DNA of 64,000 bases, taken from Candidatus Omnitrophota bacterium. GTDB taxonomy: Bacteria > Omnitrophota > Omnitrophia > Omnitrophales > Aquincolibacteriaceae. The stretch is from contig JAKJDL010000008.1 of assembly GCA_022705945.1 (NCBI GenBank), forward strand, positions 642-64,641, in the 5' to 3' direction. The position numbers were made by a program, and so were the translations under genes. Below the pieces are notes generated by a model. The model was given only the letters and a program-made list of their open reading frames with translations, searched no databases and was not told the DNA's origin. Positions 6,442 through 60,772 of the stretch are shown here, piece by piece; position 1 is the first letter of the stretch; every line of letters starts with the position of its first letter.

Positions 6442-6450
6442 GTTTTGTCC

Positions 6451-9500: not shown

Positions 9501-9504
9501 CTCG

Positions 9505-13138: not shown

Positions 13139-13333
13139 TGCTTCTCAAAACCACCTTAAGACCCTTGTCGTGATCCCTGCGGAGAACACTTGGATCTTTT
13201 GCTTTTCGCGGGTTTCCATGCGGCGAACCTTGCGGTTACACGAGGCTGAATTTTTTTATGTTTCGAAGAGCCCCCTGACAAAATTTACGGCCCGGCTTTC
13301 ATATATACAGGAAAAAAAAACGCTGTCAATGAA

Positions 13334-14551: not shown

Positions 14552-14770
14552 ATACCCGTTCGCTCGGGACTATGGGTTCGGGACCCGAGTTGGTTCCCCG
14601 TTTAATCTTCCGCGAGGTACGAGCCCCGAGCGACGAGTCCCGTCTGTCGTGTTCAGGCAGACGCATTCTATGTGATTCTTCCGGCAAAATCAGCAATCTT
14701 CCACTCACCGCATCAAGACCGGGTCTTGGCAGGCGGTAAACTCACGGGGTTTTAATGCAAGATCCAAAAT
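14552..14770 (-). promoter_or_regulatory. Long GC-rich structured 5' leader upstream of the DAACS transporter (candidate riboswitch/attenuator)
   Basis: About 220-nt untranslated region with several complementary segments (cgggactcgtcgctcgggg / ccccgagcgacgagtcccg and others). The class is not identified. Confidence 0.25.
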
Positions 14771-38292: not shown

Positions 38293-39264
38293 CTAAATGA
38301 ATTTCAACTCCACTTTCCGTGGAATGATGCCGTGCCTGTGAGCTTCGTCCAGCAACCGCCGGAACCCTGCCTCGCCGTCGGCTCCGATATCGACCGTCCG
38401 CTCGTTCACATACATCCCGACGAACCGGTCGTTCAGATCCCAGGGCGTACCGCGCCCGAATTGGAGCGCGTATTTTAACGCGTCTTCGCGGTGATTCAAG
38501 GCATATTCGATGCTCTCTTTGAAAAGCGCCGAGAACTCCCGCATCGTCTGTTCTCCGAGGTCTTTGCGGATCACATCGACGCCGAGCGGGAGCGGCAGGC
38601 CCGTTTTCCCGTGCCACCACTCGCCCAGATCCAAGACCTTCCCGAGACCGTGCGCTTCGTGGGTGATCTGACCTTCGTGGATCACGAGACCATAGTCTGC
38701 TTCGCCGGATTTCACGGCATCGAAAATCTTGTCAAAAGGAACAAGCACTGTTTCAAAGTCACGCACAATGTCAGCTTCAGCGGTCGCCGCATAAAGCTGA
38801 AAAACCAGGTAGGCAGTGGTAAGCTTGCCGGGAACTGCAACTCTGGGTTTGGCCGCACGACACGGGCCGAACGCCTCATGAAGGTTTCCGCCGCGGGGCT
38901 TTGTGGCCCGGCGGCTTGCGGCAACAAGTATGGGGCCGTAATTGTCGCCCACGCTCGCGCCCGAGCGCATGACGGCATAACTTTCCGCCAGATAAGCGTA
39001 TGCGTGACAGGAAACGGCGGTTACTTCTAAGGGAACTGGCGGATTTTCAGGGACCGGCTCTCTCGCCGTCTCTTTCCGAAAATCAGCCTGCCCCTTTCCC
39101 AGCGCCCTTTGATTGAGCGACTCGATGTCCTCGATCACATGCTCGATCTTGAAACCGCGCATCGGGATTTTTTCGTGCGCGAGTGCGTAGAACATGAATG
39201 CGTCGTCCGCGTCAGGGCTGTGGCCTACTCTTATCAATCCGGGAGATGTCTTCATGGTAGGCAT
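38293..39264 (-). CDS. MqnA/MqnD-family protein (futalosine-pathway menaquinone biosynthesis, periplasmic-binding-like fold)
   Basis: IRVGHSPDADDAFMFYALA near the N-terminus and overall about 320 aa resemble the MqnA/MqnD (VitK2_biosynth) family. Called from memory without a search. Start at 39264 or 39255. Confidence 0.5.
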   Translation of the reverse strand: MPTMKTSPGLIRVGHSPDADDAFMFYALAHEKIPMRGFKIEHVIEDIESLNQRALGKGQADFRKETAREPVPENPPVPLEVTAVSCHAYAYLAESYAVMRSGASVGDNYGPILVAASRRATKPRGGNLHEAFGPCRAAKPRVAVPGKLTTAYLVFQLYAATAEADIVRDFETVLVPFDKIFDAVKSGEADYGLVIHEGQITHEAHGLGKVLDLGEWWHGKTGLPLPLGVDVIRKDLGEQTMREFSALFKESIEYALNHREDALKYALQFGRGTPWDLNDRFVGMYVNERTVDIGADGEAGFRRLLDEAHRHGIIPRKVELKFI

Positions 39265-39304
39265 TATACCCGCAAATCCGGGATTCGTCCCCCGGGGCCT
39301 AATA

Positions 39305-42300
39305 TTATGCCGATCGCGCCGTCGCGAGATACCCGGCCTGCATCCGCTCAACGAGCTGGCTCACGCCGGCCACGCGTAGAAAGCTCGCGAACTTTTGAGG
39401 CGTCATGACCGAAATGTCGGAAAGCCGTTTCACCAGTTCTTCGGGAAGCGTTTCGGCACCCCACACCATCGCCCTGAGATTCAATTCGCGGCCGCGGGCT
39501 TCCCTGCCCAGGAGTTTTCTCGCATCATCCAAGTGATCGGCCTGAAGAAGGAGGGGCCGGTTGGCTGGGGAGAGCTGGGCAAGAAAGCCGCGATCCGCTG
39601 AGCTGAGTTCGCTCTCGCTCGCGAGCACAATGATCCGCGTGCCGCTGAAGACTTTCTGGACCGCCAGAAGCGCCTTCTGATCGAACGCGAAAGATTTTGT
39701 AAGAATGAGGGCATCCATCCCTTCGACCGTCCTGAAAGCTATTTTGCGGGCATCGGCATAACGTTTTTCTTCCGGTTCCGTCACGGGAGCCGCAAGCACG
39801 TCATCCGGTGTCTCCGCGGCCTGCGCGACAGGAACCACCGCATTCACGATGAGCTTGACAGCGTTCGCGCCAAACGCATAAGGCACGAGCGACACGATGC
39901 CATCCGTAAGTTTTTCCGTGACGCCGAGGAAACCCCGCAGAGTTCCGCCGCCGAGACGGATATTCTCCGGAATGAACGTCTCCGGATCCGCAAAAACCAG
40001 CCGTGTCTGACCCGGCTCTGCCTGCGAGCGCGTCTCGGACCGGACAGGAACTGCGGATTTCTGCCGATACCGTGTTGGTTTGCCGGAAACCGGAACCGGG
40101 CGGTCAAAAGTCGCACTGTCGCCAAGGGCCATCTGAAAGTCTTTTTGAAATTTGTTCAAAGCTTTTTTCAGGCTCCCCCATGTGACCGGGTCTTTGGGAA
40201 GATTCTCCGGAATCCGGACTATCTCCTTGTAAAACCCGCGGAGGACTTTCACGGCGTCGGATTCGCGGCCATAGTTCAGAGAAGCCGACGTTACCATCGG
40301 AACAAAAACATCCCCGCACAACATGAAAAGATCTCGAAGCATGTTCGGGTCAAGCTTCCCAAACTCCTTCCATCCCGATTCCTCCATCTCAAGCAATTCA
40401 CGGTAGTCCGCACCGGCCAGCGCGCGCGGATAATCGCGCGGCAGTCGCGGATAATCCCTCGATGCTTCCTGATTCAGATAATAAAGTTTCCCGAAAAAGC
40501 CCCGGATCAGCCGACGGGACGGGTCATTCATCCCGGGATACCGGCTTTCCATTGTGTCGGTGAGAAGCCGGACAATAAAATGCACCCCCGGTGCGAGATT
40601 TTCCTCCGGCACCGGCTGGGAATAGAAGGAGCGGCCCCAAAAACCCTTTTCCGCAAGCGCTTTAAGATTCGCCTGGGAAATGTTGCCTTTGTTCTTCGCG
40701 TTTCTAGAGCCCCGTAAAACAAACGGCGCGGTTCGCCCCGGCAAGGCCTCGGAAATACTCTCTTCCAATCGGCCCCGCAAAGTTTCATCGACCGGGAGCG
40801 TCTCACCGGAAACAGTCGCGGAGGCGGAAACCTCTGCCGTTGCGGACGCTTCTTCCGGAACGATAGGGGCAGAAAGACCGACCGCCCCGCGATCAAGGAT
40901 CCTCAAAACAGAGCCCTCGAAATCCCAGAAACCGAGCGTCTTGCCCCAGGCAAGAAGGTGGACGGCCATGTCCTTCGGAATCCCGTAACGGGACGCATTC
41001 AGACGAAGGTCTTCCGCTATATCGGGAGGAACTTCTCCCTCCCAGGAGGAGACCCAACTCCGAACCGCTTTCGTGATGAACGGCTGTTGTTCCCGAATAT
41101 AATCCGCCCTGAAACTAACCGTGAGCAATGCGTTCCGGAACGGCACCCGGATTTGCGTATGCTCAAACCGGACACCGTTCTTCATTGTCAGAATAGACTG
41201 GGCATAAATCTGATTGAACATTTTCCTTGTTTGTTCGACAGATAGCTGTTCCCGGCCCGATCGCGCTTCCGCGCGTAGTGGGACAGCCGCAACGTTTGGC
41301 ACAACAATCGGCGTTTCGGCCACATCTGCTGCCGACGCGATAGCCGCATCCGATATCTCAACAGCCCCCGCACGAAGCTCCGAACGGTTCACTCCCACCG
41401 GCACCATCTGAAGGACCTGAAACCGCCATCCCGGCTGCCGGATCCCCGCCGGATCCTTACGTCTGACCACGGGTATCCCCGTTCTCCAGCCTTCTTTGAG
41501 AAGCGCGGAAAGCGTATGTTTCTTTTCGTAGACTTGCCCCAGAATAAGATCGCGAGCCTGATAGATCATCTCCGGCAAGAGACCCAGCGTTGAGATACTG
41601 CCGATCCCGAACCAAACCTTCCCCTCATCCTTATTGTAAGGAGTTTTCGCAAAATGGATCGGGATTACGACATGACGTTTTTGTTCGAGTCCGCCGGTTT
41701 CTTCTTTAAGCGTCCTGGAGATCACAATGGCCGTACCACGGCTGGCATCGTTGAAAAAAACCTCTCCTCTTTCAAAAAGATCTTTCACTGCCGGATCCCG
41801 CATGACGCTCTTGAGGGCCCGGTAAACCTCCCGGGATTCTTCCTCCGGCCCTTCCCAGTCTTTCATGTCTTCGAGAAGTTCCGGTACAAGCGCCGAGATA
41901 AAGGCCATCACGGGACGAACACCTTCCGCGCCGAAAAGCTCTATCGCCGTATCCCGTCCGATCCCGGAAACAGCCTGGAGATGCGTTTTGAGCTCTTCCG
42001 GTCCCCGGTGCTGGTAATAGGTCACCATTTTCTTCAGCCAATAGACCCTCGGCTTTTGCTGGCGCAATTGCTCTCCCGGTTCGCCGGAAACAAGCGCGCG
42101 AAGATCGTCCAGGATGAGAGATGCCAACTGCTTCCTTTTTTCTTCCGGTTTCATCTCGCCCGCGGCCCGGAGTTTCAGGATCTGAATATCGGGAGACGGC
42201 ACCCCGACCGGCAGAGTTCCCTGCGCGAGCATCCAGAAGGGATAAGGCTTCCGGTCCTCGCCCATCCCGTAGACCTCTCCCGTGATCGCATTGAGGACCT

Positions 42301-45300
42301 GATAGGTCATCGTCGCCGATTCCGGATCGGTCTGGCCCGTAAGCCATTCGAACTCTTTCTGCCCGTAAAATTGTCCCCAGGCCTTTGACTCGCCTCCGTC
42401 AATGCCGGGATATTTCGGTTCGCCCAGATTCAGCGCAACGATATACCTGTCCGCGCCTTCCTGAACGGCAAACCCCGCCAGGCTTTTATTCATGGAACCG
42501 AACCGCCGTCCGTTGGTTTCAAGATAGAAGAAGAGGTTCTGCCGAAACAGGTCGTTCTTGAAAAGCGATTCATACTCTTTGCTGCGGGAATGAATATACC
42601 CCTTCAGGACATTCCCCGATAACGTGACAACAAAGCTGTCCAGGAGCCGGAGCGCCGCAAGGTTGGCTTTCACTTTTTCCAGAAGATCCGTAGCAGCCTC
42701 CGCCCGGGACTTCAGGCGGAGCATTTCCTTATAAAGATCCGGTATCTCTCTCTCGAATCCCTCGAGATAACGGAATATCCTGGCGAAGATATCCTCCTTG
42801 CCGGCGTGATACGCCACCGAACGGTAACCGTCCGCGGCATGAGTTCGTATTCGGCGCGCGCTTTCAACAAAGGCGAGCGGTCCCGGGGGAGCGATCTCAA
42901 GCGCGTTGGGAGATTCATTTCTCCAGACGAATCCGGTATCATCGCCCGCTCTTTGGGAAAGAAACCTCAGAGCGCTTTCGGGAGAAAGCCCCGGCTTTTC
43001 CAGCAGGGCTTTTTCCTCTCCGGATTTTACGACTGTCCTCTGCCAAAGTTTTATGTGCGCCCGCGCCTGGCTTTTTTCCATATCCGCGACGGGAGAGGAC
43101 CGGAGAGCTTTCCATATGAGATCCCGACGCGACGAAGATAACCGGTAGCGTTCCCGGAGTTCGGCAAGGGCACCGGCCAGAGAATCCGCGGACGGCGGAC
43201 GCGCGTTCACGGTCTGAATCTTTCCGTCCACAACGGTATTGAGAACGAACTTGCCGTCGCCCGCCGCGGCGTATTCCACCAGAAAACCATTGGTGATCTT
43301 CCAGGCGCCGGCGTGAAGTTTTCCGGCAAGCTCCTCATAGGTAACATGCTCTTTGAAGATATTCACTTCGCGGCCGGTCGCAGATTCTGTGATTGTGAAC
43401 AGTTCCGGCTCCGCGCCGCCCCAAACGCCGATCAGGGCCGCGCCATTCGGAAGCCCCTTCATCATGCTGGTGGCCGAAGCTTCCAGGATTTCATAAGAAA
43501 GCATTACGCTCGCGGAGATCCCCTGGAAAATAACCGGCGCGACTTCAATGTTGTAGTTCTCGATCGTCGCAAATTTATCTTCAAGGCCAAGCTCCCGCAC
43601 CAAATCCTGGATCTCCAGAAACAAGCCGTGCGCATCTTTGCCGAACTCGCGCCCGCCTATGACCGCCCGGGCAGCGTTCTTCTTGTACCATTCCAGCCTT
43701 GCCGGGTCAGCCTTGAGCGCCCGGAGAACCTCGATCCATTTGTCCGGTCCCTTGTAGGAAACCTGGCGTCGCACGTTGGAAACGATCGGAGTCTTGAGAA
43801 ATTCCCGGCTAAGCGCCTGAACCCTGCGATCCGCCAAAAGCGCGGCCCATTCGTTTTCATTTTCAAGCGCGCCCCGGATACGGCGGTTGAGATCCGCCAG
43901 AAGCCGGTCGCCATAAACCTCCGTGAGCCCGAACTCTTCCCGATACGCTTTCATTGCCTGATCGAACCATGCGGGACGGTTTTGACTTTCTTTAAGCCAC
44001 AGCATCAACCGACCGGTCAAAAAGGCTTTAATGACCTCTGTTCTCTCCTTAAATTCACTCAGAAGAAGTGCCTGGGCAGGTTCGCTGAGCTTCGCAAAGA
44101 GGACCCTGTCATCCGATGCGGGGTCCATCCCGAGCTTCTTTTTATAGCTGTCGGTCAATCCCCGAAGGAGCGGTGACTGCCACTGTTCGAGCAGGACCCC
44201 GTTCGTGCTCCGGAGCCCGTCCTCGTTGTAGCTGTCCACCACATCGGCATAGCCGGGCATCACGCCGCCCGTGACGGCAGGCGTGTGTTCATACAAGGCG
44301 ACCCCGGTAACAAGGTCAAATGTCATCCCCGCCGCATCCGTGACACTGATCTTTCCGTTCCGGACGATATAGGGCCGCAGTGCCCTAGAATATCCCAGCA
44401 CCTCCAGAGAAGCCTCTTCAGGCTGATAGATCGTCGGCGTGAAGACAGAGTGGTTTATGTGATGGTGAAGCGCGTCCGGCAGAAGAGGCGTCGGCAAGCT
44501 GACAAAAACCTCATTGTCCACAAAGAGAATCTTCTTCTTGGCCACTCCTTGCTCCTGAAGTTTCAACGTCAGAAGCTCGGTAACTTTCCGGTAAACCCCC
44601 ATTTGCAGGTCGCGCCAAAGATTGGGGGCTCCATAAGGAGCATCGGGATAAACCTCGTCGAAGATCTGGACCTTCTTTCCATAATCATCAATGTAAAAAG
44701 CCTCGATATAAAAATTCGGCATACCCCCGACCGAAGTCTCGGTCGGATAAACCTTGACCCTGATCTCGCGGTCAACCGCTTCCCGGGCTTGCTGGAGTCG
44801 TTTCCTGTATAAAGCATCGCCGGTCCGGCTGATCCACTCGTCGGCTTTCGTGCGAAACTCATCGCCGGCATCCAGAGAGAAACTCAGCCGAAATCCCGGA
44901 TCTTCGGTCAGAACTTCGCGAAGATAATCCCCCAGCGTCTTTTTGCCGCTCACCACCTCTTCCGGAAGGTCTTTGGCGTAAGCCTGCCCCTTGATCTCGT
45001 CATAGATCACGTTCACGGCAAAGACATCTATGTTCTTTTTTTTCGGAGCTCCAAAATTCTTTTGCCAGGAGGGGAAAAGATCGTGCATCAGGGCTCCTAG
45101 GCCTCCGGTCATCGTAGTGGCCGCGACCAGTCCCGCGATCTCTTCGCCGAACTTCGCTTTAAGCTTTTCCAAAATATCACGCGACAACCCGGCCTCAAGC
45201 TGGCGGGAAATGACAGTATAATTCCCAAGTTCCGGGGCATTCTTCGTCGCCCAGGAGCGCATCTCGGAGCGGGAAGATCTTGAAAAAGCGACGGCGAGTA

Positions 45301-48300
45301 CAGCGGCTCCGCCGACAGGTCCGGAAAAATCGGCGAATCCCATCACCGGTGAGGCATGTTTTTTCATCAAGCCGTCCCGCCTGCTCGGCGCGTATCCCTT
45401 GTCAATCCCCGCTTCGCGGACCTCCGACCGGCCCAGGGCCGATAGGGCGCTTTCGATACGCACTAACCGGGGTTCTTCTTTCCGGGCCTTTTCAAGCTGT
45501 TCCAGAAGATAGCGCCGGGTCTCTTCATCGATCTTGGCGAGCGATCTTAAATGCTTTGTGAGTAACGCCCTGACCAAAGACTCTCTCCGTGAGGACCGGA
45601 TGGCCCGAACAACATGGTCGACCGCTTCCCTGGCAGTATAGCCGGCTTTCATCAGCTCATCCGCGGGATCTTTTTGCTTCCGTGCCCTGTGGATCGCGGA
45701 AGCCACTTCCAGGGTCCGGATCTCGGGGACCGGCTCCTCGCCAAGGACATTCATCCATCCGCTCATGTACCGGTTGCGCGCCACATCGATCCATCGCGCG
45801 TCCTGCGTCAACAGCTGATATTGCACTTCCCGCCACGCGGGACGGTCATACCGGTAAACGTCATACATTTTCATTAGCGAACTCAACCAGTAAACGGGGT
45901 TAAAAACCTTGAACCCTTCCGTCAGTTCCCCGCGGGTGACCAGCTTGTCCGCCAGTCCATCCACGTCCCGGAGATGACGCATGATCCCGTTGGCCGCAGC
46001 CTCTTTATCGCTAAGACCGCACGGTTCAAAGGTAGACGGCATATCGAACAGGTCCGAACCGCCATAGATCAAATCGTACATTTCCTCGGTCGTTTTGATG
46101 AAACTCGGCCGGAAATAAACCCGTCCGGAGAAAAGGGACGCAATTTCATTAAATCCTTTTTCGTAGCTGGAGCCCTTTTCCACGCTCCCGGCCACCACAA
46201 ACCGCACATCCGGATGAAGAATGAGCATCACGTCCAGGGCTCTCAAAGCCTCCATCCCGTGCTCTTTGGCAAATTCCCTGAGCGTCCGGGCCTGGGCTTC
46301 CGTCAGCTGGATCCGCACATCCGGATCCGCAAAAAGGTTCCGCATCGGAACCGCCTGCTCGTTGATATTGCCGGACAAACGGAACGGAGGATGCTGCGGG
46401 TTGAGACGCAGACCGTTTGGATCCCTGACCGTCCAGACTTCGGCAAGGAGCAGGTGATGTCCCTTTTGCATGTCGATCCGGTGGAGCATGGAATGCACAA
46501 AAACACGGTCCGGGTCCCCCGCCAGACCTGTCTTCTCCAGCAAAACGCGCCGGGCGACCGGCTGAAGATAATCCAGGACCACTTTCGCGAGCATCCGGCG
46601 ATCACGCTCGTGACCGATCTCCATGAAACTTTTGACAAATCTCGAGGGGTTCCTGACCACCTTCCCAAGATATTCCCGGAACCCTTCCATGCCCGGCTCC
46701 CAGTCCGGGTTTTTCAGATCTGATCGCATTTTTTCAAGCACTCGGGCATCATGAAACCAGCGGTGCAGGAAATCCCTCTGCTGGGTAACAACCTCGATAC
46801 CGTTCGGAATTCCGGTATATCGCCCAAGGCTGTCCTTGTATTGAAGCTCACCGGTCAATCCTCCGAATTCGTTCCAGTAATCATTGTCCAGGCTACGGTC
46901 GTGATACCCTTTCGATACCGTTACGGCCAGGTCCGATGTCTTGAGCGCCGTGAAGCTCGGATTGATGATTCCCCAAATCCCCGGAGCGAAAAGGACATCC
47001 CAGTCTTCCTGTGCGCTTAGTCCGAGGTCATGATAGACCATGGCATTACGCCGGCGTGTTTGTTCGTCGGTAAGGTGTTTTGTCTTCCAATCGTTGCTGA
47101 TATAAACCCAACCCTGATAATCCCGGTGAAGGTTATGGAATATCGAGGTAACGCGGGTTCGGCGAAAGTGCGGGTCCCGCTTCAGGTCTTTCAGCGCGGG
47201 AGCAATGCGGTCCCGGCCTTCCAGGTAAGCTTTCAGGTAGGCCGACGGCCAGTCATTGGTCTGGATGACATCAGGGTGGATGTTCGCCTCGCGAAGAGCA
47301 AGAAGAGCTCCGAGCGAAAGCGCCCTGGCGAATCGAAGCTTGAAGTTGTCCGCCCCGTGATACCCGCTGGGGTCTCCGGACCATCTGCCTCGCAGTCTCG
47401 GAAAAACCGTGTCGTTCATCAGCCCAAGGACCCGGACCCCCCTGATCTTGGTCTTGAAAATCATCAGGTCCTCGTACTGAACGGTTCCGCCGTTATCATA
47501 CGGAACCGGCGCCACGCGCCCTGTGTCTCTGAACCCGTATTGCTTAATCACATCCGCTTTGTTGTGGGAATAGATCGGGGCAACCAGCGTGACATTTACG
47601 CCAAGATGGGCCAACGTCAACGCCAGCTCCGAAACGGCCTTGGCCAGCCCGCCCGTTCCTTCGGTCCACAGGCTTTCGGGACTCACGAGCACCACTTCGC
47701 CGACGGAAGAACTCTGAAGAACCTTGATGGCATCTTCGCTCATTGCGGGATCGCTTTCCTGGTCTTCGACCGCCATACTGACGAGGAACTCACGGATCTC
47801 GTCCTTAAGCTCCGGTTTCAGAACCATAACGTCCCGGAAAACCATCGCGAGGTTCCCCAGATCCAGCCGGCCGCCCGAGGCGCGGATAATCCCGGAAAAT
47901 AACCGGAAAAGCGTCTTGAACTCACGATAACCGCTTTCAAACGCCCTGACGATCTCCCCGGAGACAAAACTATACCTGAACCTGTCCTCAACGCCGTAGC
48001 GGCGGTAGCGCTGAAGCGAATCCTTCAGAAGTTCACGGTAACCGGGCTCACCGGCAAGAGGTAATTTTCCCGAGATTTTCCGAAGGTGATAGATTTTTAT
48101 TTTACCGGACCGGAGAGGATCACGCGGGCCCAGCCCCAAATGCCGCATGGCATTCCCGGTCAGGATCAAAGGTTCCCCCGGATTGCGTACATTTACAGAA
48201 ATGTCCTCACTGTCATGGACCTTGATGAACTCAAACACATCTTCGGGCTGAACTAACAGGATTTTTTCTTTTTCCCCGAAAACCCGTTCCGGAATAAAGT

Positions 48301-51300: not shown

Positions 51301-54300
51301 CGCTGGGATACTGATCATAATCGCGTGAATGGTTGAGGCGAAGCGTTTTTTTCTTTTCTCTCAAAAGGAGACTCAGCTGGAAGATCAGATCCAGGTTGGC
51401 GGTCAGGTCCCCCTGCTCCAGAATCCACCGGATCGCCGCAAATGCATCGCCCCAGGTCTTGATTCCCCGAATGTCCGGCATATCTTCCCGCGCTTCCGAG
51501 CGGATAGCCGCACCGCCGTGTGAAACGGTTTTGAGGAATTCGCCGAGAGGCATCCCGGATTCCAGGGAAAGGTTTTCCGGGAGAGCGGCGCCGGTCGCTC
51601 TCGAGATCCATCCGGCAAAAACCCTTTGGATTATAATTTTTTTCCCGGGGTGAAAACCTCCTGGCCCGGACAGCTTCCCGAGAATGTTGATCAATTGCAG
51701 GGCTGCCTTTTTCTGTTTTACGGCGTCTTGAAAAATCTCCCGGGGCGTCTCGACAAGAAGCCAGCCTTCCGGTTTGTGCGCATCTCCGCCTCCCATCGCG
51801 AAAAGGATACCGGCCTCGTGCTCTTTCTTGTCCGCTTCCGCATAATTTGCCTTCCGGGCATGAATCAGACCCGGCTTTATTTCAATACCGGACTCATCGT
51901 GAGCATGCGTGTACGTGGAAAAGCCCGCTCCCCTGAGAAGAAGGATGCTCAAGGGATTGGCTTGAAGATGCATCCTGTTCGCCCCATCCATCCGGACGCT
52001 GAAGCTGACGCTCCTGTTTTCCTCTTGCTCTTCGGCCGAAAGGGCCCTATCCGTATTCAGCTCGATCATGGCCTGCACGGGAGTTATCGTGCCCAGGCGT
52101 TTCTTAATGCGTCTCAAGATCTCCTGGCTGATTCTGAGCTGGATACTGCGGTCAAATTTATAAGGATCAATCCACTGATACCGGACAAACTCATGAAATG
52201 TTTTCCCCGCCGGCGGCTCGCTATCGGTCCCCGTAACCTCATTTGTCCCGGCATAGAAACAGAGCATCTTCCAGGCCATGAGCGCTTCGTCCGAAGAAGG
52301 ATCATCCTTGGCGATCTCAAAATAGACCCGCACGATCTCCTGCATATGTTTTTCGAGCTCCGCCTGGCCGCAGATCAAAAACTCCGTCCCTTTCTCTTCA
52401 GAAAGCTGAAACCCTTTTTCTTTTAGATAGGTAACGGCGATCCTGCGCCCTAAAAGCTCGCGAAGATTTTGAAGGTCCTTCGAGAGGCGTCTCTTCTCAT
52501 AACCCGGATCGTCCGTCAAATATTTCAACCGGAAATACATATCGATCTCGGCACCCGTCAACGACCGGACCATCCAGCGGTTGTCTTTTATCGTAACGGC
52601 TCCATGTCTGTCGTTAGAGCGGATCGATTTCATCGTTTTTTCCGAGGACGTTCCCGGGGCAAGAAGCCACTGATAAAATTTTTCGCGAGTTTCGGAACGC
52701 CGTGCTGAACTATATGGCAAAGACTCTGCCGCCGCGGAGACAAAAGCTCCGGAGGCGAAAGCCCGGACCTCGGAACGCCCTGATATCTTTTTACACATTT
52801 CAATAAGCGCTGTCGTCGACTGGTCATGACCGGTGACCTCGGCACCGGCCGGAAGCTGGGGAAGGATATTTTTGGCAAGCAATTTCCCTAGCTGAACACC
52901 CCACTGATCAAAGCTATAGACATTCCAGATCACCCCCTGGACGAAGATCTTGTGCTCATACATCGCAATAAGAGCGCCAAGAACCCTCGGCGTCAACTTC
53001 CTAAAAAGGAAAGTATTGGTGGGATGATTCCCTTCAAAGACTTTATGCGGAGCAAGCTTTTTAGCTTCTTCCGGCGTTTTTCCGTCACGAAGAAGCTGCT
53101 GATACGCCTCCTCGCGGGTCTGGCCCGACATGAGAGCCTCGGTTTGGGCGATGGCATTCGCGATTAATTTATCCTGGTGATCTCCCAACGGATAATGGCT
53201 TGAAGCCGCCAGCAAAAAGTCCGCCGGGATCAGCTTGGTCCCCTGGTGGATCAACTGGAAGAAAGCGTGCTGCCCGTTGGTGCCGGGCTCCCCCCAGATA
53301 ACAGGGCCCGTTTGCCAGCGCACGCGCTTGCCGTCCCGGGTAACGGTCTTGCCGTTGCTTTCCATATCCGCTTGCTGCAGATAGGCTGGAAGACGACGGA
53401 GCGACTGGCTGTAAGGAAGTATCGCGTAGGTTTGGGCGCCAAAAAAATTGTTGTACCAGATCCCGAAAAGCGCCAATAGCACGGGGAGATTTTCTTTCAA
53501 AGGCGCCTTCCGGAAATGTTCATCCATGTCATAGGCGCCCCGGAGAAGCTCCTCGTAATTATCATATCCGATGAAACAGGCAACCGACAATCCGACGGCA
53601 GACCAGAGAGAATAACGCCCGCCGACATAATCCCAGAAGCGGAACATGTTCCGGGTATCGATCCCGAAACCCGTGACCCTTTCTTCCGACGTTGAAACCG
53701 CCACAAAATGCCTCGCGACAAACGAGGGATCCCCGGCTTTTTCCAGAAACCACTCCTTCGCGGTCGCGGCATTCGTAAGGGTTTCCTGGGTGTCGAATTG
53801 TTTCGAGGCGATAATGAAAAGCGTCGTTTCGGGATCAAGCCCTTCCAGCGTCTCCGCAATATGCGTTCCGTCCACGTTCGAAACGAAATGCACGCGAAGA
53901 TCTGGACGCGCCTGGTAGGGCTTGAGAGCTTCCGCCGCCATCATCGGCCCGAGGTCCGAGCCTCCGATCCCTATATTCACGATATCCGTGATGGGCTTGC
54001 CCGTGTACCCCTTCCACCGGCCGGAAATGATCTTCTCGGAAAAATCCTTCATCTGCCTCCGGACTTTCCGGATCTCCGGCATCACATCACGGCCGTCCAG
54101 CATCACAGGCCGGTCTGAAAAGTTCCGGAGCGCGGTGTGAAGCACGGCCCGCCCTTCGGTCCCGTTGATCCTCGCGCCTTCAAACATCATCCGGATCGCA
54201 CGCGGCACTTCCGTTTCCTCCGCAAGCCGAAGAAACTCCTCAACAACATTGTCCGTCAAGCGGTTCTTTGAAAGATCGGCAATGATTTCTTCGCCGTTTC

Positions 54301-57300
54301 CGAGAACGACCTCATGCGTATATTTTTCCGCCCGGCGGGGATCAAGGGAAAAGATGTTTCTCAGATGCAGCTTGCGAACATCCCTGAAAATTTTCTTGAG
54401 CGACCTCCAGGCTTCCGTTTCGGTCGGATCATAACTCGGGAACACCTCGCCTGAAGAAAAATCCTTCTTTCCCGCGGGAATCTCGGAACGGGCTTCGGAG
54501 CGGGCCGCCGAAGATGCTTCAAGTTCATTCTCAAGCAGAGCGGTATCATTCCAGCGAAACGCTCTTCCGTTGATCACGATTTCGCGTTTTCCCTGAGACC
54601 TTGCCTTGACATTGCTTGTGGCGAGACCTTCCAGAAGCTCGCCCCGGCTTGTCGCAAAGAAATTCTTTCCGTCGATCATGACACCGATCTTTCGCGCGTT
54701 CACTTTCCAAACGATCACTTTGCGTGTCTCGGAGCGGGAAACAACAAGATCCGGGAACCATGCGTGGAATTCACCTTCCGTATATTCCCCGGCGGGGTCC
54801 CTGGCCCAAACATCCATATCTTCCGGCGCGGTTAAATGGATGAAATTTCTTCGCACATCAAGTCGTCGCCCTGTCAGACCGAGCGCGGGATCATTCCGGA
54901 AAGCGCGGGCACGCAAACTGTCGGGGTGCTTTACTGCAGCGTCTTTCGGGTCCGTTTCACCTGCAAATTCATCCTTCATCTGCTGGAGCGTAGACGCATC
55001 CGCCGCAAAAGGGTCCTTCTTGAGCCAGATCGCAATGGTAGGCGTTTCGGCCCCGGTAAAATCTTCGGCAAGTGCGGGAAAAAATGCGTTGTAAGCGGGG
55101 ACTGTTTTTCCGCGATAGGCTACCGGAATATAGTCTTCGTCAGGCAAAGAGAGAAGCCCGATGCGAAAAGCCCTGGGACCCTTTCCAAGCTTTTTGACCT
55201 TGCTCATTCCAAAAGGCGCATCCCAAATACTTGCCAGATGTTCCGGCGACAAGCCTGTTTTTTCCATAAGTTCGTTCGCCGAAAACGCAAGCTGGTCCCC
55301 GGGAACAATTTCTTTTGAAAAATCAAGAACCGCCAGATGCTCTTTGACCGCAGTCCGCTCCTCGTCGTTCAAGGCCTTGTCTCCCAGGGTGGCGACTGCC
55401 GCGTGACGAGAATAATGTTCCCCGAGAACATCTTCCCCGCGAATAGTCCCGGCATCCACCACGCGAACGGCATTGGCGAAATAACCGCGTTTTCCGGCCG
55501 CGCCGAGAACCTCGACGATCGTTTTTTCCGTGATCGTCCCGACAGAAGGCTTAATCAAAAGCACGAGGCTGTCTTTCATATCAGGGTCCTGAAGGCGACG
55601 GCCATTCCCGAAATCCACATAGCCGGTCGTTCCCTCCTTATACAATGCGAACGCTTCAGCTGCGATCTTCTCGGCTGTTCGCATTTCGGAACGGTGCTTT
55701 CCGGTCATTATCTGAAACACCGCCAGCCGGGCATTTGGAATATCAAGAGGTAAAACCCGCTTCTTCCCGGACATCCGGGAACTCATTCCGCTTACGGTAA
55801 CCCCCAAGACTCCCGCGCCCGCGCTTCTCAGTTTGTTCAAAAATTCCGGGATTTTCCGGCCCGAACGGGTTTCCGAGCCGGCAGCCGCAGTATCCGTTCT
55901 TGTTTCCGAACGCGCCCAGTCGGTCAGAATGGAACTTAACGCCTTGACATGATCCCCCGTCACAACATAAGACAAACCGCCGCCGTGGGGATTGATCGTC
56001 GCCATCATCGGTTTTTCAAAAACCCCGGCAATCACGCCGTCTGCTTTCATTTGATCCAGAACGTCTTTAGACTTCACCGCACTCTGAGAGTTCGTCCAAA
56101 AAACCACCGGAGTCTGAAACCCGTTCCGGTCAAGCGCCCGCCACATGCTCTCATGCCACCGCGCTTGATCACGACGTCCCGCATAGTCATCAAAACCGGC
56201 CAGAACCAGGTCGAAGGGACGGCTCGCCAGCGCCAGCCAGAGATCTTCCCGCTGAAAAGAAAGGTCGATCGTTTCAATCGTCGCGGCCGGGCTGATAGCC
56301 TGGGCCAGCTGGCGAAGCGACGTTGCGCCGGCTTTTGTATCCGCAACAAGAATTCTTTTGATCCACGGGAACGCATCCATCGAAAGCGGTGTTATATTTT
56401 TCGCCTCCTCTTTTCCTTTTTCGGAAGCCGAGCTGTCACCGCCCTCGCGCGCTTCACTGCGGGTGAGGCCGGTGTCCGGAATGATTTCGATCCATTCAAC
56501 GTTACTGATATCCGGGATCCTCGCTTGCCGGCTCAGCTCATCCACGGTCACAAAACCAAGAACTTCCTTATAAGCTCCTACTGTGATCTGATAAGTGATC
56601 TCCCGGTGCCGAGGACGCACCAGGACAAGGGTCCCATGAAGCGCTTCCTCAGTAACGCCTTGCGCCTTGAGGAAATCCGAGATTTTTCCGCGGCTATCTC
56701 CGATCAACTCTTTCGAAAAGCGCCGTGTCGGAACTTCCGGACGACCTTGTCCGGTCCTGAAGATCTCATCCTCTCCCCTTGTTTCCGAGCGGACAACCGG
56801 AGCTTTTATTCTGGTCAAAAAGTCCTGTGCGGAAAAAAGCCCGTTGGCGCCCTTGCGGCCTCCGGACACAAGCGGCTCCGACAGGAACCGTCCCGCGGTT
56901 TTTCTCACTCCTTGATCCGGATGATTCCTCGCGACGGCTCTGAGCCGGGCACGCACCATTGCCTCGCTTACCTTCTCCCCGCGAACCTCCGAGCGACCGT
57001 CAACCAAACTCCCGCCGTCTCCGCGGCTTAGATCCAAACGCTTCGGACTGCCCGGCGCCCGCAGTGCTTTCCGTGAAGGTCGTGGGGGAGCTTTTTGCCG
57101 AAGTCGAATTTTATCGATTGTCCGCAGCAATTCGCTCCTCTCGGCTTCCGAACCGTTTACTTTTAAAACTTCCCGCTCCGCCGCGTCCAAGGCTTGACGG
57201 ATTCTGGGATCTTCCTGCAGCCCCTCCATTTCGCGGACAACGTCCGTTGCCTCAGACCACTTCCGAGCACCTGCCTGCCTGTCAAGCGCCTTGACCAGCC

Positions 57301-60300
57301 TGGGTATTTCGATGCGGTCTCTGAAAAAACCCCCGACAGAAGCGGGCATTCTGTTGCGGGAAAACTGAACGGAAAACAAAATGAGGGCTCCTGCGGCCAG
57401 GAATCCGGCCCAGCGGAGTCTCCGGTTGGGAGCGTCCTTTCGTGACGGGATCCCGCCGAGAATGGCTTCTATGGAATAGACCAGCAGAGGTCCCGTCAAA
57501 GCAAGCATCCATGCACCATCATGATGCATCCCGGCCCTCGAAACATGGGGGCTAAAAAAGACCCTTATCGCAAAGAACACGACGGCGGCAGCGCTATAGG
57601 TCAATCCGAAAAAAGCGCTGATCCCTATCACCGGATCCCTCTCTTCCGGCTGCTCGTCCGGAACGGGCGGCATGTCCGGCCATTGAATGACGGGCGCGGC
57701 TTCTTTCCGGGCTTTCAACAGATCGGCAAGAATCCAGGGGGTCATTATCGGCGAAAAAAGAATCCCTATCATCTTCAAAAATCCGGGGACAAACAAAGCG
57801 CTCAAAAAAACAATCCCCGCACTGAAAAAATAGGCTCTTAGCACATTCACGACAAAGGGGTACTGCGAGGCATACCAGGGGAAAAGGAACAAGCCCGCGA
57901 GGCCAAGAAACAGCGCGGCACCTCCCAGATAGGCAATCCCTCCTTCCGTATCCAGCTTTTTCTCCGAGGTCATGAAAAATGACGGCATGAAAAAAAACGC
58001 CAGAAGAACCGCTACGCCGAGAGCAATTCGTTTTTTAAACACTCTGTCCCTCTGGGACGGCGAAGAAGCGGCAACCTCCCGAAGCGTCGGGCCATAATCA
58101 ATGAGACCGCTCCCCAGGAGACCCTGATCGAACAAGGGATCCTTGATCGGGTCCGCATGGCGACGGATAACATTCAAAATTTCCAGGGTTGAAAGATTTG
58201 GATTAAACTCCAGGATCCGCGCGATCATCCCTGCGACCCGGGCCGAAGCAATCGATGTCCCCGCAACCTCAAACGAAGTTACTGAAAAAAAGTTGTTTTC
58301 TTGCAGAAAGTCGCGTCCGGAGGCACAGATATGAACGTGGGACCCGAAATTCGAACGAGCCTCCTTTCCGCGCGGCGTTGCATCGCCGACGCCGATCACG
58401 CCGTCAAACGCCGCCGGGAAATTAGGGTTGCCGTCCGGAATGTTCCCGGCCGCCGCCACCAGGATCGCCCCCGCGTCCGCAAGCCGGCCTATCAAGATCT
58501 TCTCCTCTTCGGTATAAAACTTTCCGCCAAAACTCATGTTCACGACAACGCGTCGGTCAGGATTTGCCTTCATAAAATCCAAAACCGTTCCGAGGGCCTT
58601 GTAATAGCGACCGATGTCGACTTGCCCGGACACCGGGTTGACTACAGCGATTGAAATCACTTCAGCGCTAGGCGTCGATTGCCTGAGCACTTTGGCCACG
58701 ATGCTCCCATGATCCACTCGGGTTTCCTCGTCCCCGCGGACAGGGCCTTCCACAAAAGAGCTTTTTATGCCCGTGTCGAGTACAAAAACAGCAACGAGGT
58801 CCTTCTGCGATGCGGCGACAACCTGCATGGGTAAACCGGTCAACGCCGCAGCCAAGACTACCATTCTGAAAATCCTTAAAAAACTCCCTGACATTTCCGC
58901 AAAGGGCCGGGTTCTTCCGGAACGAGTACGCGTCTCGGCCCGCGAGGCGGTGCCGTCTCCGCCTTTCCAGATGCTACGCTCGACTTCCGGTTGCCGGGCA
59001 GTAGCGGATACGGGAAGGGCGCTCCGCGCGGAAACTAAAAACTGCTGTTGCAGATACCGCTGCCCGACTTCCGCAAGAAATTGCGCGTCGCTTCTAAGGG
59101 GCGGCGCCTGCTGGCTTCGTGCGATATCGCTTCCGAGAAGCACGTTCAGATAGTTTTTCCGGTCATCGATGCCTGCCTTGCCGATCTGCGGCGTGATACC
59201 GATATATGTTGCGCCGGAAGCGGTGATTTTTTCTTTCAAACCGTCCGTGTGAAATCCTCCGGTCACAAGTACCGCTCGCGGTTTTTTTGACGATTTAAGC
59301 CGGGCGAGGGAATTGCGGAACATGATGTCCTCGCGCTCGATAGCAGCCGCATAGAAATCGAGCGCTTTCTGAAAAAGCACCCTGATTTCCCGCGCGGAAC
59401 TCGCCTCCCGGCCGTTGGGCCGGGTCCCGAGTCCCCTGACAAGTTTTTCGGGAGTTATTCCCCGCGATTTGACTTGCTGATATTCTTCCCGGCTCAGTTC
59501 GAGATTAAAAAGTTTCCTCAAAAGCCGGTATTCGCGGAGCGCGGCGGCAAGGCGCTTTTCTTCCGGTGTCACAGCGAGTTTTTCGATGATCAGCTTCGTA
59601 AGCGATTCGATCTCTTTCCGGAGCGCGTCGCCCCCGATCTCCGACATGAGGATGATCTGCTGGATGTACAAGCGGAGGTTCGGATAGGGATCGAACGAGA
59701 AATCGGGCGGAAGGGCGTCGAGCAGGCGCTCGAAAACAAAGCGAGTTTTATAAACCGGGAGATCGTGTTTCGCGGCAGATTCGAAAATTTGCTCAATCTC
59801 TCTCAAAAGGGTCTCGGAACCCGTCGCCCGGGACTCGTTTTGATTTCTCGTTTTTCGATCCCCTGGTTCCGAGGAACTGGTTTCAAGTTTTTGGATAGCA
59901 TTCAAAAATTCCTGTTTCTCCTTCTCAACCTTCGCCGCGTCGATCTTCCCGCCGATCTTTCCCAACCGGAAATAACGGACAAGAACAGGCCAGTCCGTTT
60001 GAGCACGAACGTCCTTGAGATCGACAGGTGCATTTTCATCCGTCGTCCGCCCTCCGTCATTCCATACCGGGTTTTTAAAGGCCGCTGTCTTCAGCACCTC
60101 CAGCCAATCCCCGAGCGGAAGGCGCTCTTCATCGAAATCGGTATAACGGATGAGAAATTCGCGGAGATCTTTATTGAGGGAGATGCCGGCCTGCTTTTGC
60201 CATGCAATGCGTTTGGCGGACAAAAATTTCGAAATTGTTTTGCGGCTCTGATAGACCTTGCGAAATGCGTCGAGACCGGCGCGATACGCTGCGGCTTCTT

Positions 60301-60772
60301 CAACTCCGTAGCCTTTCATGGCGCCGGCCGATTCCATTAAATAAGCTTCCGCTCCGGTAAGTTCGGCAACGCGCAGCAGCCGGTCGTTGATGGTGCGGCG
60401 GAGTTCGGCGTCTCCTCCCGAAAGGTCTATCGAATCGGGACGGAGCTCATAACCTGCGCCCTCCAGATAAACTTCCTTGATATTATAATTTTCACTGAGG
60501 AACCGCAGGATGTCCCTGATGTTCTTCTGGGCATCATAATTGGCGTGAGCTTCCTGGACATGAAGAAGAACCGGAGCGTTCGGACTGCCGAAAATGATCT
60601 CGTGAACTTTGCCTAGCTCGGCCGGAATCTCGAAGTTCTGGACCTGGTTTGCGTGAGCCAGCACTTCCGTCGCGGCATAAGCAAGAGGAGACGGAGTGAG
60701 GGTGTTGGTCGTAAAAAAAGTAACGGCAATCAACCCGGCCAGAAGTCTTTTGATCTTCTTTGAGTAGCTCAT
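39305..60772 (-). CDS. Giant multidomain secreted/membrane polyprotein-like protein (7155 aa): signal peptide, shared N-domain, S8 subtilisin, TM block, receiver-like domain, phosphoglucose isomerase, PPDK-type dikinase module, GT5 glycogen synthase, GT35-like glucan phosphorylase and further unassigned modules
   Basis: Single uninterrupted 21,468-nt ORF. GAGG RBS upstream of the ATG at 60772. Signal peptide [33 protein letters not shown]. Domain motifs are listed in the sub-features below. Confidence 0.85.
43553..45175 (-). other. Alpha-glucan phosphorylase (GT35)-like module, aa about 5200-5740
   Basis: [41 protein letters not shown] resembles the GGLGxLAGD...LxGVGLLY N-terminal block of bacterial/archaeal alpha-glucan phosphorylases. 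Weaker than the other calls. Confidence 0.45.
45923..47701 (-). other. Glycogen/starch synthase (GT5)-like module, aa about 4358-4950
   Basis: [40 protein letters not shown] (the KTGGL-type ADP-glucose motif) ... [10 protein letters not shown] ... [34 protein letters not shown] (the PSRFEPCGL...GGLADTV block). Confidence 0.75.
48638..50110 (-). other. PPDK/PEP-synthase-type nucleotide-binding domain plus phospho-histidine swivel domain, without a PEP/pyruvate TIM barrel (dikinase-like), aa about 3555-4045
   Basis: [25 protein letters not shown]; [25 protein letters not shown]; [31 protein letters not shown] (PPDK_N blocks); then [25 protein letters not shown] (PEP-utilising His domain). No PEP-binding barrel is recognisable afterwards. 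Confidence 0.7.
52853..54400 (-). other. Complete glucose-6-phosphate isomerase (PGI) module, aa about 2125-2640
   Basis: [94 protein letters not shown] and [15 protein letters not shown] are the conserved PGI blocks, in order. Confidence 0.85.
56003..56359 (-). other. CheY-like receiver-type domain (possibly degenerate), aa about 1472-1590
   Basis: [11 protein letters not shown]...[10 protein letters not shown]...[10 protein letters not shown]...GVFEKP mirrors the receiver beta-strand/Asp/Thr/Lys layout. The acidic pocket is partly substituted. Confidence 0.35.
57338..58030 (-). other. Multi-pass transmembrane block (about 6-8 helices), aa about 915-1145
   Basis: Consecutive about 20-aa hydrophobic stretches ([18 protein letters not shown]; [20 protein letters not shown]; [19 protein letters not shown]; [21 protein letters not shown]; [22 protein letters not shown]; [15 protein letters not shown]). 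Confidence 0.65.
58088..58810 (-). other. Subtilisin-like serine protease (peptidase S8) module, aa about 655-895
   Basis: Catalytic-triad motifs in order: Asp in [10 protein letters not shown], His in VDHGSIVA, oxyanion Asn in NMSFGG, and Ser in [11 protein letters not shown]. Confidence 0.8.
59138..60595 (-). other. Shared N-terminal domain (copy 1 of 3), aa about 60-545 of the giant protein
   Basis: [22 protein letters not shown] and [29 protein letters not shown], conserved with the 2359-aa and 729-aa paralogs. Confidence 0.7.

Follow-up and report, generated by a model that had tools for sequence, protein, structure and literature searches.

How a bacterium would use a single open reading frame (ORF) of 21.5 kb, in which a protease, a block of membrane helices and enzymes of central sugar metabolism follow one another, is the question raised by the locus described here: does the product work as one giant chain, or is it the precursor of many proteins? 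The frame encodes 7155 amino acids (aa) and lies on the minus strand of a 64,000-nt stretch of contig JAKJDL010000008.1 (positions 642 to 64,641; assembly GCA_022705945.1, Candidatus Omnitrophota bacterium), referred to below as the window. An initial annotation had reported the frame as uninterrupted, which the ORF list and an independent translation confirm (no internal stop in 7155 codons), and had offered three readings of its product: a membrane-tethered metabolon, a processed polyprotein, or the effector-like cargo of a predatory or symbiotic cell. The second is favoured here and the other two are retained as rivals. With somewhat better than even confidence, sequence comparisons point to a polyprotein cut at recurring R-S-E-x-R junctions. 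This junction motif, a third paralog next door and a conserved C-terminal tail are three features that the initial annotation had overlooked.

A five-residue motif at the cassette borders

The pentapeptide R-[S/A/T]-E-x-R occurs at 18 sites in the giant ORF (15 RSExR, RTELR, RAETR and RAEAR); in the strict form, R-[ST]-E-x-R, it is counted 16 times, compared with 0.34 on average and never more than 3 across 2000 shuffled sequences. Elsewhere in the window it is found only in a second member of the same family, paralog 2 (five copies), and in none of the 26 other ORFs. Codons at the motif vary freely (CGN/AGR, TCN/AGY, GAA/GAG), and selection therefore acts on the peptide rather than on the DNA; a DNA- or RNA-level repeat at the junctions was rejected on the same ground and because no DNA repeats are present. 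Every module border of the giant ORF carries a motif, and all Pfam domains lie between motifs, never interrupted by one. The segments so delimited are either protein-sized (63-1290 aa) or spacers of 10-48 aa enclosed by two motifs (pairs at aa 2666/2692, 4073/4088, 5115/5168 and 6463/6500).

The N-terminal domain that defines the family (N-domain) allowed the motif to be followed in 79 Omnitrophota loci with 10-kb flanks, in which N-domain ORFs run for thousands of residues, many of them past the end of the flank; below, L-numbers denote family ORFs from these loci and P-numbers family representatives from a profile scan. The family ORF tails (138,419 aa) contain 268 copies of R[ST]ExR, compared with 5.9 +/- 2.6 in shuffles, and RSE.R is the most enriched of all gapped pentamers in the loci (263 observed, 3.3 expected, about 80-fold), followed by RAE.R and RPE.R. 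Motif density is equal in 151 independent representatives, at 1.94 per 1000 aa. As controls, 500 of the 515 neighbouring ORFs in the loci have no motif, and those with several are mostly adjacent giant ORFs or additional N-domain paralogs. Two ORFs of more than 3200 aa with 6-8 motifs (L013, 1-9804, plus strand; L039, 3-9845, plus strand) lie directly upstream of N-domain ORFs, which means that polyprotein genes occur in tandem arrays. The median length between motifs is 219 aa, and the flanks are linker-like: A, S, P and G abound upstream of the motif, E, A and G on its downstream side. A literature search for the motif strings returned irrelevant matches only; as far as the searchable literature goes, the R-S-E-x-R junction grammar is previously unreported.

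Comparison of the giant ORF with the family by BLASTP and phmmer, with the borders examined by pairwise alignment, shows what the motifs separate. Blocks in common with L010 cover aa 1694-2130 (68% identity) and aa 3091-4077 (76% identity); the block aa 5163-6472 recurs at 43-68% identity in L002, L004, L006 and L007 (five paralogous proteins, L016 included); and aa 6908-7155 has its counterpart at the very C-terminal ends of L003, L005 and L007. In the partner proteins a motif stands at the equivalent position with a different x residue, and in the pairwise alignments homology on one side of the motif is met by unrelated sequence on the far side. Stand-alone phosphoglucose isomerase (PGI) aligns to its cassette from residue 2-6 to residue 551 of 551, its last residue falling on the first residue of the next motif. 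P0105, an 876-aa fragment from a JGI metagenome, contains another PGI cassette, which is flanked by RSEVR and RSEMR, is directly followed by the C-terminal domain ending ...FATARSA, and occupies a position in the polyprotein different from that in the giant ORF. Since the blocks start and stop at motifs and the PGI cassette is a complete enzyme, the cassettes are, as judged from these alignments, whole proteins shuffled among paralogs.

The motif is uniform inside one protein, varies between lineages and is kept at orthologous junctions. L002 uses mostly RSESR, L008 RPESR/RPEAR (12 copies) and L017 (S)LSDSR (nine copies, about 1000-fold above expectation); a weaker repeat, (G)ASLG, is present in 4-6 copies in L020 and L066. 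Such a pattern, constant inside each protein and shifting from lineage to lineage, would be expected of a recognition site co-evolving with its reader.

Sorting signals and the question of cleavage

Across the family, hydrophobic segments are 3.5-fold enriched in the 20 residues that follow the motif. A hydrophobic segment lies within 35 aa after 6.4-8.1% of junctions, as against 1.5-2.0% before them and 2.4-2.7% at random positions, and many of these segments read as classical signal peptides. Patterns resembling twin-arginine (Tat) signals, [STN]RRxF[LIVM], fall within 40 aa after a motif in 15 of 40 cases (4.8 expected), for example RSEMR-GI-NRRGFLAGVGAFLS, and lipobox signal peptides do so in four of five (0.6 expected), for example RSEMR-...-GLVAVGLTLAVSGLVGC. 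Signals placed right after motifs provide the strongest indirect argument that the cassettes would be separate polypeptides, with separation probably starting on the cytoplasmic side. In the giant ORF, signal-peptide-like starts are present only at the N-domain and at the S8 subtilase module (after RAETR at aa 611); PGI, the dikinase-like unit and the glycosyltransferases have none. With the cytosolic cassettes free of signals, PGI and the other cytosolic enzymes need no secretion, and the earlier view of them as part of a secreted or membrane-anchored polypeptide is probably wrong here.

In the scheme proposed, one 7155-aa precursor would be translated and a sequence-specific endoprotease would cut at or next to the 18 junctions, releasing about 13 protein-sized products and a few short spacers. 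The N-domain, which resembles Tiki and ChaN proteins, would be exported via its own signal peptide, and the S8 subtilase by its own signal-like start, to be anchored by its C-terminal block of 6-7 helices; PGI, the dikinase derived from pyruvate phosphate dikinase (PPDK), the GlgA-like and GT35-like glycosyltransferases and the remaining cassettes, all without signals, would stay in the cytoplasm. The whole would amount to an operon written as a single ORF and resolved post-translationally. Its grammar may be put as a signal peptide, a Tiki/ChaN-like domain, n repeats of R-S-E-x-R plus an autonomous cassette, and a helix ending in [SA]A-COOH. In earlier work, too, cleavage was proposed for these giants, with the sites explicitly unknown. 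The cuts could be made by the N-domain common to the whole family, by the S8 module in trans, or by some unlinked protease.

Several points weigh against such a polyprotein. Both the cleavage at the motif and the cytoplasmic side of the cutting are predictions from sequence. No protease is assignable: an S8 homolog is present in one of 144 family representatives and in one of 79 loci, which makes the subtilase unlikely as a universal cis protease and lets it act at best in trans, and the N-domain's own signal peptide would place that domain across the membrane from a cytoplasmic cut. Internal sorting signals argue strongly for autonomous cassettes and are not proof of cutting at the motif; signal and anchor sequences can work inside an uncut chain, as they do in polytopic proteins, and signal peptidases I and II could do some of the cutting without any cleavage at the motif. 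Inspected by eye, the cassettes behind Tat-like signals yielded no recognisable known cofactor enzyme. In some long members of the family (L001, L035, L042) recognisable junction motifs are few or absent, and several complete relatives have no hydrophobic segment beyond the N-terminal one, for which whole-chain export would naively be predicted, a topology puzzle also raised in the published papers.

Part of this evidence would suit an uncleaved, membrane-tethered metabolon, in which the chain is anchored by the helices of aa 634-1137 and R-S-E-x-R serves as a flexible-linker or docking motif read by a binding partner, a chaperone or a modifying enzyme rather than by a protease. The motif does sit in linker-like sequence, no cognate protease emerged from the family representatives, such proteins appear in print as single giants associated with the membrane, and internal hydrophobic segments could merely thread a polytopic protein. 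PGI, however, is an obligate dimer, and its pairing inside 7155-aa chains would be awkward; lipobox and Tat-like signals right after motifs make little sense in a permanent fusion. Nor does a plain linker need a five-residue consensus that is uniform within a protein and drifts between lineages, and the paired motifs around spacers resemble the spacer peptides of processed precursors. We consider the metabolon rather unlikely.

An exported effector array similar to the MARTX toxins, cut outside the cell or inside prey by the N-domain or the S8 protease, would have the enzymes that need ATP, S-adenosylmethionine, acetyl-CoA or sugar phosphates act in the cytoplasm of the host or prey. One member of the Omnitrophota, an epibiotic predator, up-regulates its giant protein upon attachment, and complete relatives of 3400-3750 aa carry no hydrophobic segment beyond the signal peptide. 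Tiki/ChaN-like and S8 hydrolase domains are typically extracytoplasmic, one of the N-domain's fold neighbours is the MARTX effector RRSP, and the conserved helix with its [SA]A-COOH tail is reminiscent, in our assumption, of HlyA-type C-terminal secretion signals. Against export stand the genes around: the window holds no secretion-system genes, and the context is one of housekeeping (hydrogenase/Mrp, superoxide dismutase (SOD), ThyA, transketolase, gamma-glutamyltransferase (GGT), MqnA). Signals of the Tat and lipoprotein types within the chain imply that sorting starts in the cytoplasm of the producing cell itself; the PGI cassette is 60-64% identical to ordinary housekeeping PGIs, and many Omnitrophota genomes are reported to have no annotated stand-alone pgi, which fits a housekeeping role. 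An effector array is accordingly judged improbable, and somewhat more so than the metabolon.

The source is most likely a metagenome assembly, but a chimera, or neighbouring genes joined through sequencing errors, is excluded for practical purposes by the improbability of 7155 stop-free codons at the local base composition (P ~1e-133), by the absence of DNA repeats of 30 nt or more, a possible cause of chimeric assembly, anywhere in the gene, junctions included, by junction motifs that are in frame and kept in orthologs, and by the recurrence of the N-domain, motif-delimited cassettes and C-tail in thousands of independent sequences of 0.6-7.8 thousand residues (kaa), among them relatives of 5-7.8 kaa from independent assemblies that have whole blocks in common with the giant ORF.

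Architecture of the giant ORF and its family

Coordinates of all features are collected in Table 1. The signal peptide proposed earlier is supported by sequence and hydropathy, and the segment is kept in homologs. The N-domain behind it, correctly described before as shared with a paralog, also opens both other family members in the window. No Pfam or NCBIfam family matches the first 560 aa of the giant ORF above threshold; PF04187 (ChaN, Tiki superfamily) gave a weak match (E 0.0046) in two of six N-domain members, Foldseek against the PDB returned nothing significant, and a profile search of PDB sequences nothing relevant. Among 147 sequences H76, E104, E158, R266, E387, R480 and GGFH505-508 are 100% conserved. 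In an AlphaFold2 model built on a six-sequence alignment (A2; predicted local distance difference test score (pLDDT) 72, predicted template modelling score 0.67), H76, E104 and H508 follow beta-strands, a His...Glu...His arrangement that may be akin to that of erythromycin esterases and Tiki. The N-domain is probably a hydrolase of the Tiki/ChaN superfamily.

A profile from the A2 alignment confirmed at least 420 N-domain relatives in GTDB species genomes. Where named, the metagenome-assembled genomes behind the 79 kept loci are all Omnitrophota/Omnitrophica, several with multiple paralogs. When 1.84 billion representatives were scanned in full with HMMER, the N-domain profile matched 9,314 clusters, of which 5,635 reached E <= 1e-30, and among the 150 matches listed the domain occupies residues ~1-550 of proteins 560-7,818 aa long.

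At the other end of the chain, the C-terminal domain gave an unusable AlphaFold2 model (pLDDT 41, four-sequence alignment). Its [SA]A-COOH end after an amphipathic helix is found in 25 of 31 complete family ORFs in the loci and 94 of 151 representatives, compared with 31 of 795 controls, and all three members in the window share this type of tail (...ATARSA, ...SALSSAA, ...IVERAA). In about 40% of these tails, position -2 (terminal Ala = 0) is taken by R or K, and such an R/K-[SA]-A end resembles the start of the junction motif. The tail could be a secretion signal, a recognition signal of the ClpX/Tsp type, or a mimic of a cut junction.

Paralog 2 has junctions RAEAR, RSELR (twice), RSEIR and RSETR, and its cassettes include a PP2C domain (Pfam E 3e-7), a weak methyltransferase match and a Nudix-like REISEETG, recognised by eye. 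Homology between its C-terminus and the C-domain of the giant ORF was not detected, and both finish in [SA]A. Paralog 3, divergently oriented from the giant gene, retains the N-domain motifs IQIQDVHAH, LEGA and VTGGFHTEG, contains no cargo cassettes and no Pfam match, and could be a stand-alone version of the N-terminal hydrolase.

For the modules between, Pfam was run on four overlapping tiles, complemented by NCBIfam and hydropathy, and it recovered every family on which the initial annotation could be checked (PGI, S8, PPDK_N, PEP-utilizers, GT5). The Peptidase_S8 match covers aa 687-875 (E 3.7e-16; 59.7 bits, cut-off 21.8), and the complete triad reported earlier is in place, in the order D666 (DTG), H688 (HGS), oxyanion N777 (AAGN) and S840 (GTSIA); the best PDB matches are BprV, AprV2 and subtilisins, with the proprotein-convertase PCSK9 only lower down. 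The 6-8 transmembrane helices of the earlier count correspond to 7-8 hydrophobic segments by hydropathy, all within aa 634-1137: one at aa 634-652 and 6-7 within aa 911-1137, the latter block being the predicted membrane anchor of the S8 cassette. The receiver-like domain assigned to aa 1443-1620 found no backing, with no Pfam match there even at E <= 1 (PF00072 included) and none in NCBIfam. An identity related to nucleoside diphosphate kinase was tried for aa 1699-2012 and obtained no support in Pfam, NCBIfam or other homology searches.

PGI, the sole orthodox enzyme among the modules as far as sequence can tell, is the near full-length domain it had been taken for: PF00342 matches aa 2166-2657 over 486 of 486 profile positions (E 1e-222; 740 bits, cut-off 22), both PROSITE-type signatures are present (aa 2381 and 2613), and the cassette is 60-64% identical to 550-aa stand-alone PGIs over 96% of its length. 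The PPDK-type ATP-grasp and phospho-His module was also read correctly, with PPDK_N at aa 3558-3816 and PEP-utilizers, including the phospho-His motif, at aa 3956-4043. This cassette is 76% identical to that of L010, matches only PPDK residues ~14-516, the N-terminal two thirds, at 213 bits (NCBIfam equivalog cut-off 843), and has no TIM barrel for phosphoenolpyruvate/pyruvate, which suggests a substrate other than pyruvate.

The glycogen synthase of the initial annotation is retained as a GT5/GT1 unit, with both domains recovered by Pfam (Glyco_transf_5 at aa 4360-4625, 72 bits against a cut-off of 22.7; Glycos_transf_1 at aa 4843-4940), and not as glycogen synthase itself: at 124 bits it is far below the NCBIfam GlgA equivalog cut-off (TIGR02095, 328), and its sequence is that of a divergent GT5-family member rather than a GlgA equivalog. 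At aa ~4365-4375 (47693-47750 region) the nucleotide-sugar motif, usually 'KTGGL' in GlgA, is 'GTGGLA'. Gly thus stands in place of Lys, and donor specificity or activity may differ from that of glycogen synthase. For the GT35-like phosphorylase a weak similarity stands and the scores stay below every curated threshold (Pfam 19.7-21.1 bits against 27, aa 5734-5791; NCBIfam 25 against 192), with a PDB match at E 0.0035 over ~100 residues. About 2500 aa are without family assignment, in line with the at least 2000 aa noted before.

The rest of the window is ordinary chromosome, with a membrane-bound hydrogenase/Mrp-type cluster, SOD, thymidylate synthase (ThyA), a GldG-like ABC system, GGT, a split transketolase, an M24 peptidase and MqnA; it has no Rfam or tRNA matches, and no genes of type I or other secretion systems among its annotated ORFs. 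The cluster at 5545-14708 (minus strand) resembles a group-4 membrane-bound [NiFe]-hydrogenase/Mrp system and contains two Proton_antipo_M subunits, a 20-kDa subunit-ferredoxin fusion and a second fusion that joins the 30-kDa and 49-kDa subunits. Between 8 and 14 kb of the window, the AT skew has strikingly positive values of +0.23 to +0.26. Read from its TTG start, the downstream MqnA-like ORF at 38293-39351 (minus strand; VitK2_biosynth, E 1e-64) would have 47 nt in common with the 3' end of the giant ORF; its true start probably lies further in.

Table 1. Features of the giant ORF and of its two paralogs. Positions are those of the window; for junctions, the aa number is that of the first residue unless a range is given.
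Feature	Positions	Strand	Basis or remark
Giant ORF, 7155 aa + stop	39305..60772	minus	ATG at 60772, stop at 39305
N-terminal signal-peptide-like segment (aa 1-34)	60671..60772	minus	KKIKR, hydrophobic core, AYA-A; sequence and hydropathy
Family-defining N-domain (aa 35-610)	58943..60670	minus	putative Tiki/ChaN/EreA-like alpha/beta core, ~330-aa helical insert
Junction RAETR (aa 611-615)	58928..58942	minus	motif scan
Signal-peptide-like start of S8 cassette (aa 616-655)	58808..58927	minus	sequence and hydropathy; family-wide enrichment after motifs
S8 subtilase domain (aa 656-905), D666, H688, N777, S840	58058..58807	minus	Pfam and sequence
Block of 6-7 hydrophobic helices (aa 911-1137)	57362..58042	minus	hydropathy
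Junction RSEVR (aa 1260)	56981..56995	minus	motif scan
Junction RSETR (aa 1328)	56777..56791	minus	motif scan
Junction RSEAR (aa 1438)	56447..56461	minus	motif scan
Cassette aa 1443-1620, 'receiver-like' in the initial annotation	55913..56446	minus	homologs in L002, P0139, P0140
Junction RSETR (aa 1621)	55898..55912	minus	motif scan
Junction RSEMR (aa 1694)	55679..55693	minus	L010 homology starts exactly here
Cassette aa 1699-2012, no family assignment	54737..55678	minus	68% identical to L010 cassette
Junction RSETR (aa 2013)	54722..54736	minus	opposite RAEAR in L010 alignment
Junction RSEAR (aa 2091)	54488..54502	minus	opposite RSEVR in L010 alignment
PGI cassette (aa 2096-2665)	52778..54487	minus	Pfam, stand-alone PGI alignment, signatures
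Junction RSEVR (aa 2666)	52763..52777	minus	motif scan and PGI end alignment
Junction RSETR (aa 2692)	52685..52699	minus	21-aa spacer before it
Cassette aa 2697-3090, no family assignment	51503..52684	minus	Pfam/NCBIfam
Junction RSEAR (aa 3091)	51488..51502	minus	L010 homology starts
Dikinase-like cassette (aa 3096-4072)	48557..51487	minus	~450-aa helical region, PPDK ATP-grasp, phospho-His swivel
Junction RTELR (aa 4073)	48542..48556	minus	opposite RSELR in L010; homology stops
Junction RSEVR (aa 4088)	48497..48511	minus	motif scan
Cassette aa 4093-5114	45431..48496	minus	~260 aa without assignment, then divergent GT5/GT1 (GlgA-like) GT-B unit
Junction RSEVR (aa 5115)	45416..45430	minus	motif scan
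Junction RSEMR (aa 5168)	45257..45271	minus	start of block common to L002, L004, L006, L007, L016
Cassette aa 5173-6462, large GT-B-like unit, weak GT35/phosphorylase similarity	41387..45256	minus	Pfam, PDB, NCBIfam
Junction RSELR (aa 6463)	41372..41386	minus	end of block common to L002, L004, L006, L007, L016
Junction RAEAR (aa 6500)	41261..41275	minus	motif scan
Cassette aa 6505-6910, no family assignment	40043..41260	minus	Pfam/NCBIfam
Junction RSETR (aa 6911)	40028..40042	minus	opposite RSEIR before C-domain of L003, L005, L007
C-terminal domain (aa 6916-7155)	39308..40027	minus	amphipathic helix, then [SA]A end; always at extreme C-terminus in relatives
Paralog 2, 2359 aa	15497..22576	minus	signal peptide, N-domain, cassettes, ends ...SALSSAA
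Paralog 3, 729 aa, divergent from giant gene	61262..63451	plus	signal peptide, N-domain, ~290-aa tail ending ...IVERAA

Implications and relation to known systems

Published analyses left it open whether giant Omnitrophota ORFs yield one chain or many. We see an even chance that Omnitrophota routinely encode sets of proteins that are ordinary in other respects, from cytoplasmic enzymes and membrane proteins to lipoproteins and the substrates of Sec and Tat, as single ORFs resolved at a lineage-specific five-residue site by a dedicated protease. If true, this would be virus-like polyprotein gene expression in a cellular organism, spread over at least 9,000 protein clusters, in each of which a Tiki/ChaN-like hydrolase would open the chain and a conserved [SA]A-COOH tail close it, and the motif would be the cleavage map missing from earlier work on Omnitrophota giant proteins. 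The motif gives testable predictions of product boundaries, about 13 proteins for the giant gene, whose predicted sizes are searchable in the proteome data PRIDE PXD025008, and the motif peptide offers a substrate with which to fish for the protease. Were cleavage to hold, Omnitrophota genome annotation would have to split such ORFs, metabolic reconstructions with 'missing' pgi and similar genes would need revisiting, and polyprotein expression would no longer be mainly a viral strategy; were it refuted, the motif would still define the cassette grammar of a very large family without annotation.

The initial annotation knew of no described system with such fusions, and this was wrong: fused enzymes are reported in two preprints on Omnitrophota proteins of at least 10 kaa, and the giant ORF is a genuine smaller member of this known multi-enzyme kind. 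ORFs above 20 kb occur in most Omnitrophota classes (Seymour et al. 2023). The 'Archaeovorins' of the phylum have an S8 or C39 peptidase at the N-terminus and, in the same proteins, GT1, PPDK, NUDIX, methyltransferase, glucose-phosphate isomerase and glycogen-synthase-like GT5 domains; autoproteolysis was suggested for them, their cleavage points were stated to be unknown, and this gap was described as a barrier to predicting their structures and dissecting their functions (West-Roberts et al. 2023, bioRxiv 10.1101/2023.11.21.568195). A later preprint delineates 'multi-enzyme metabolic cluster' proteins, a class in which PF08323, PF00534, PGM and receiver domains occur, and does not mention cleavage, motifs or polyproteins (Nielsen & Lui 2026, bioRxiv 10.64898/2026.06.07.730766), and in neither preprint is there mention of the junction motif, the Tiki/ChaN-like N-domain family or the [SA]A-COOH tail. 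The giant ORF shares with both groups the phylum, GT5, GT1, PGI, PPDK and an S8 domain near the N-terminus; as in Archaeovorins, its repertoire taken together with that of paralog 2 includes Nudix-like and weak methyltransferase matches, and it has a signal peptide, numerous transmembrane helices (7-8 segments) and an N-terminal region without database annotation. It differs in size, since the catalogues start at 30 kaa and 10 kaa, and in having no SecA-DEAD domain, a feature of most Archaeovorins, and no HEAT or C39 domain (Pfam, E <= 0.01, all tiles).

Compared with the Tiki/TraB/ChaN/EreA superfamily, the N-domain adds its helical insert of ~330 aa and has no significant sequence or Foldseek match. 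A bacterial precedent for precursors of this shape is found in RgpA, Kgp and HagA of Porphyromonas gingivalis, in which a signal peptide and a protease domain are joined to a conserved sorting domain at the C-terminus, and from which cleavage after Arg or Lys yields several mature domains. Unlike the giant ORF, these gingipains and adhesins contain few adhesin domains, a C-terminal domain of the type IX secretion system, no metabolic enzymes and no five-residue consensus.

The polyproteins of picornaviruses, potyviruses and flaviviruses likewise draw many products from one ORF, with a short junction consensus between variable flanks, drift of the site consensus between lineages, and internal signal sequences that address single products. 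The giant ORF, in contrast, lies on a cellular chromosome among housekeeping neighbours and carries metabolic cargo, and its cleavage is only predicted. The Vibrio MARTX toxins rely on an internal cysteine protease that cuts after Leu and is activated by inositol hexakisphosphate, and on type I secretion without an N-terminal signal peptide; Pfam finds neither RTX/glycine-rich repeats nor the CPD cysteine protease in the giant ORF, whose cargo is PGI and glycosyltransferases rather than toxins. Yet MARTX proteins are equally very large and modular, with conserved N- and C-terminal regions around shuffled enzyme cassettes, and those cassettes are freed by cutting in the linkers between domains, as is proposed here for the products of the giant ORF.

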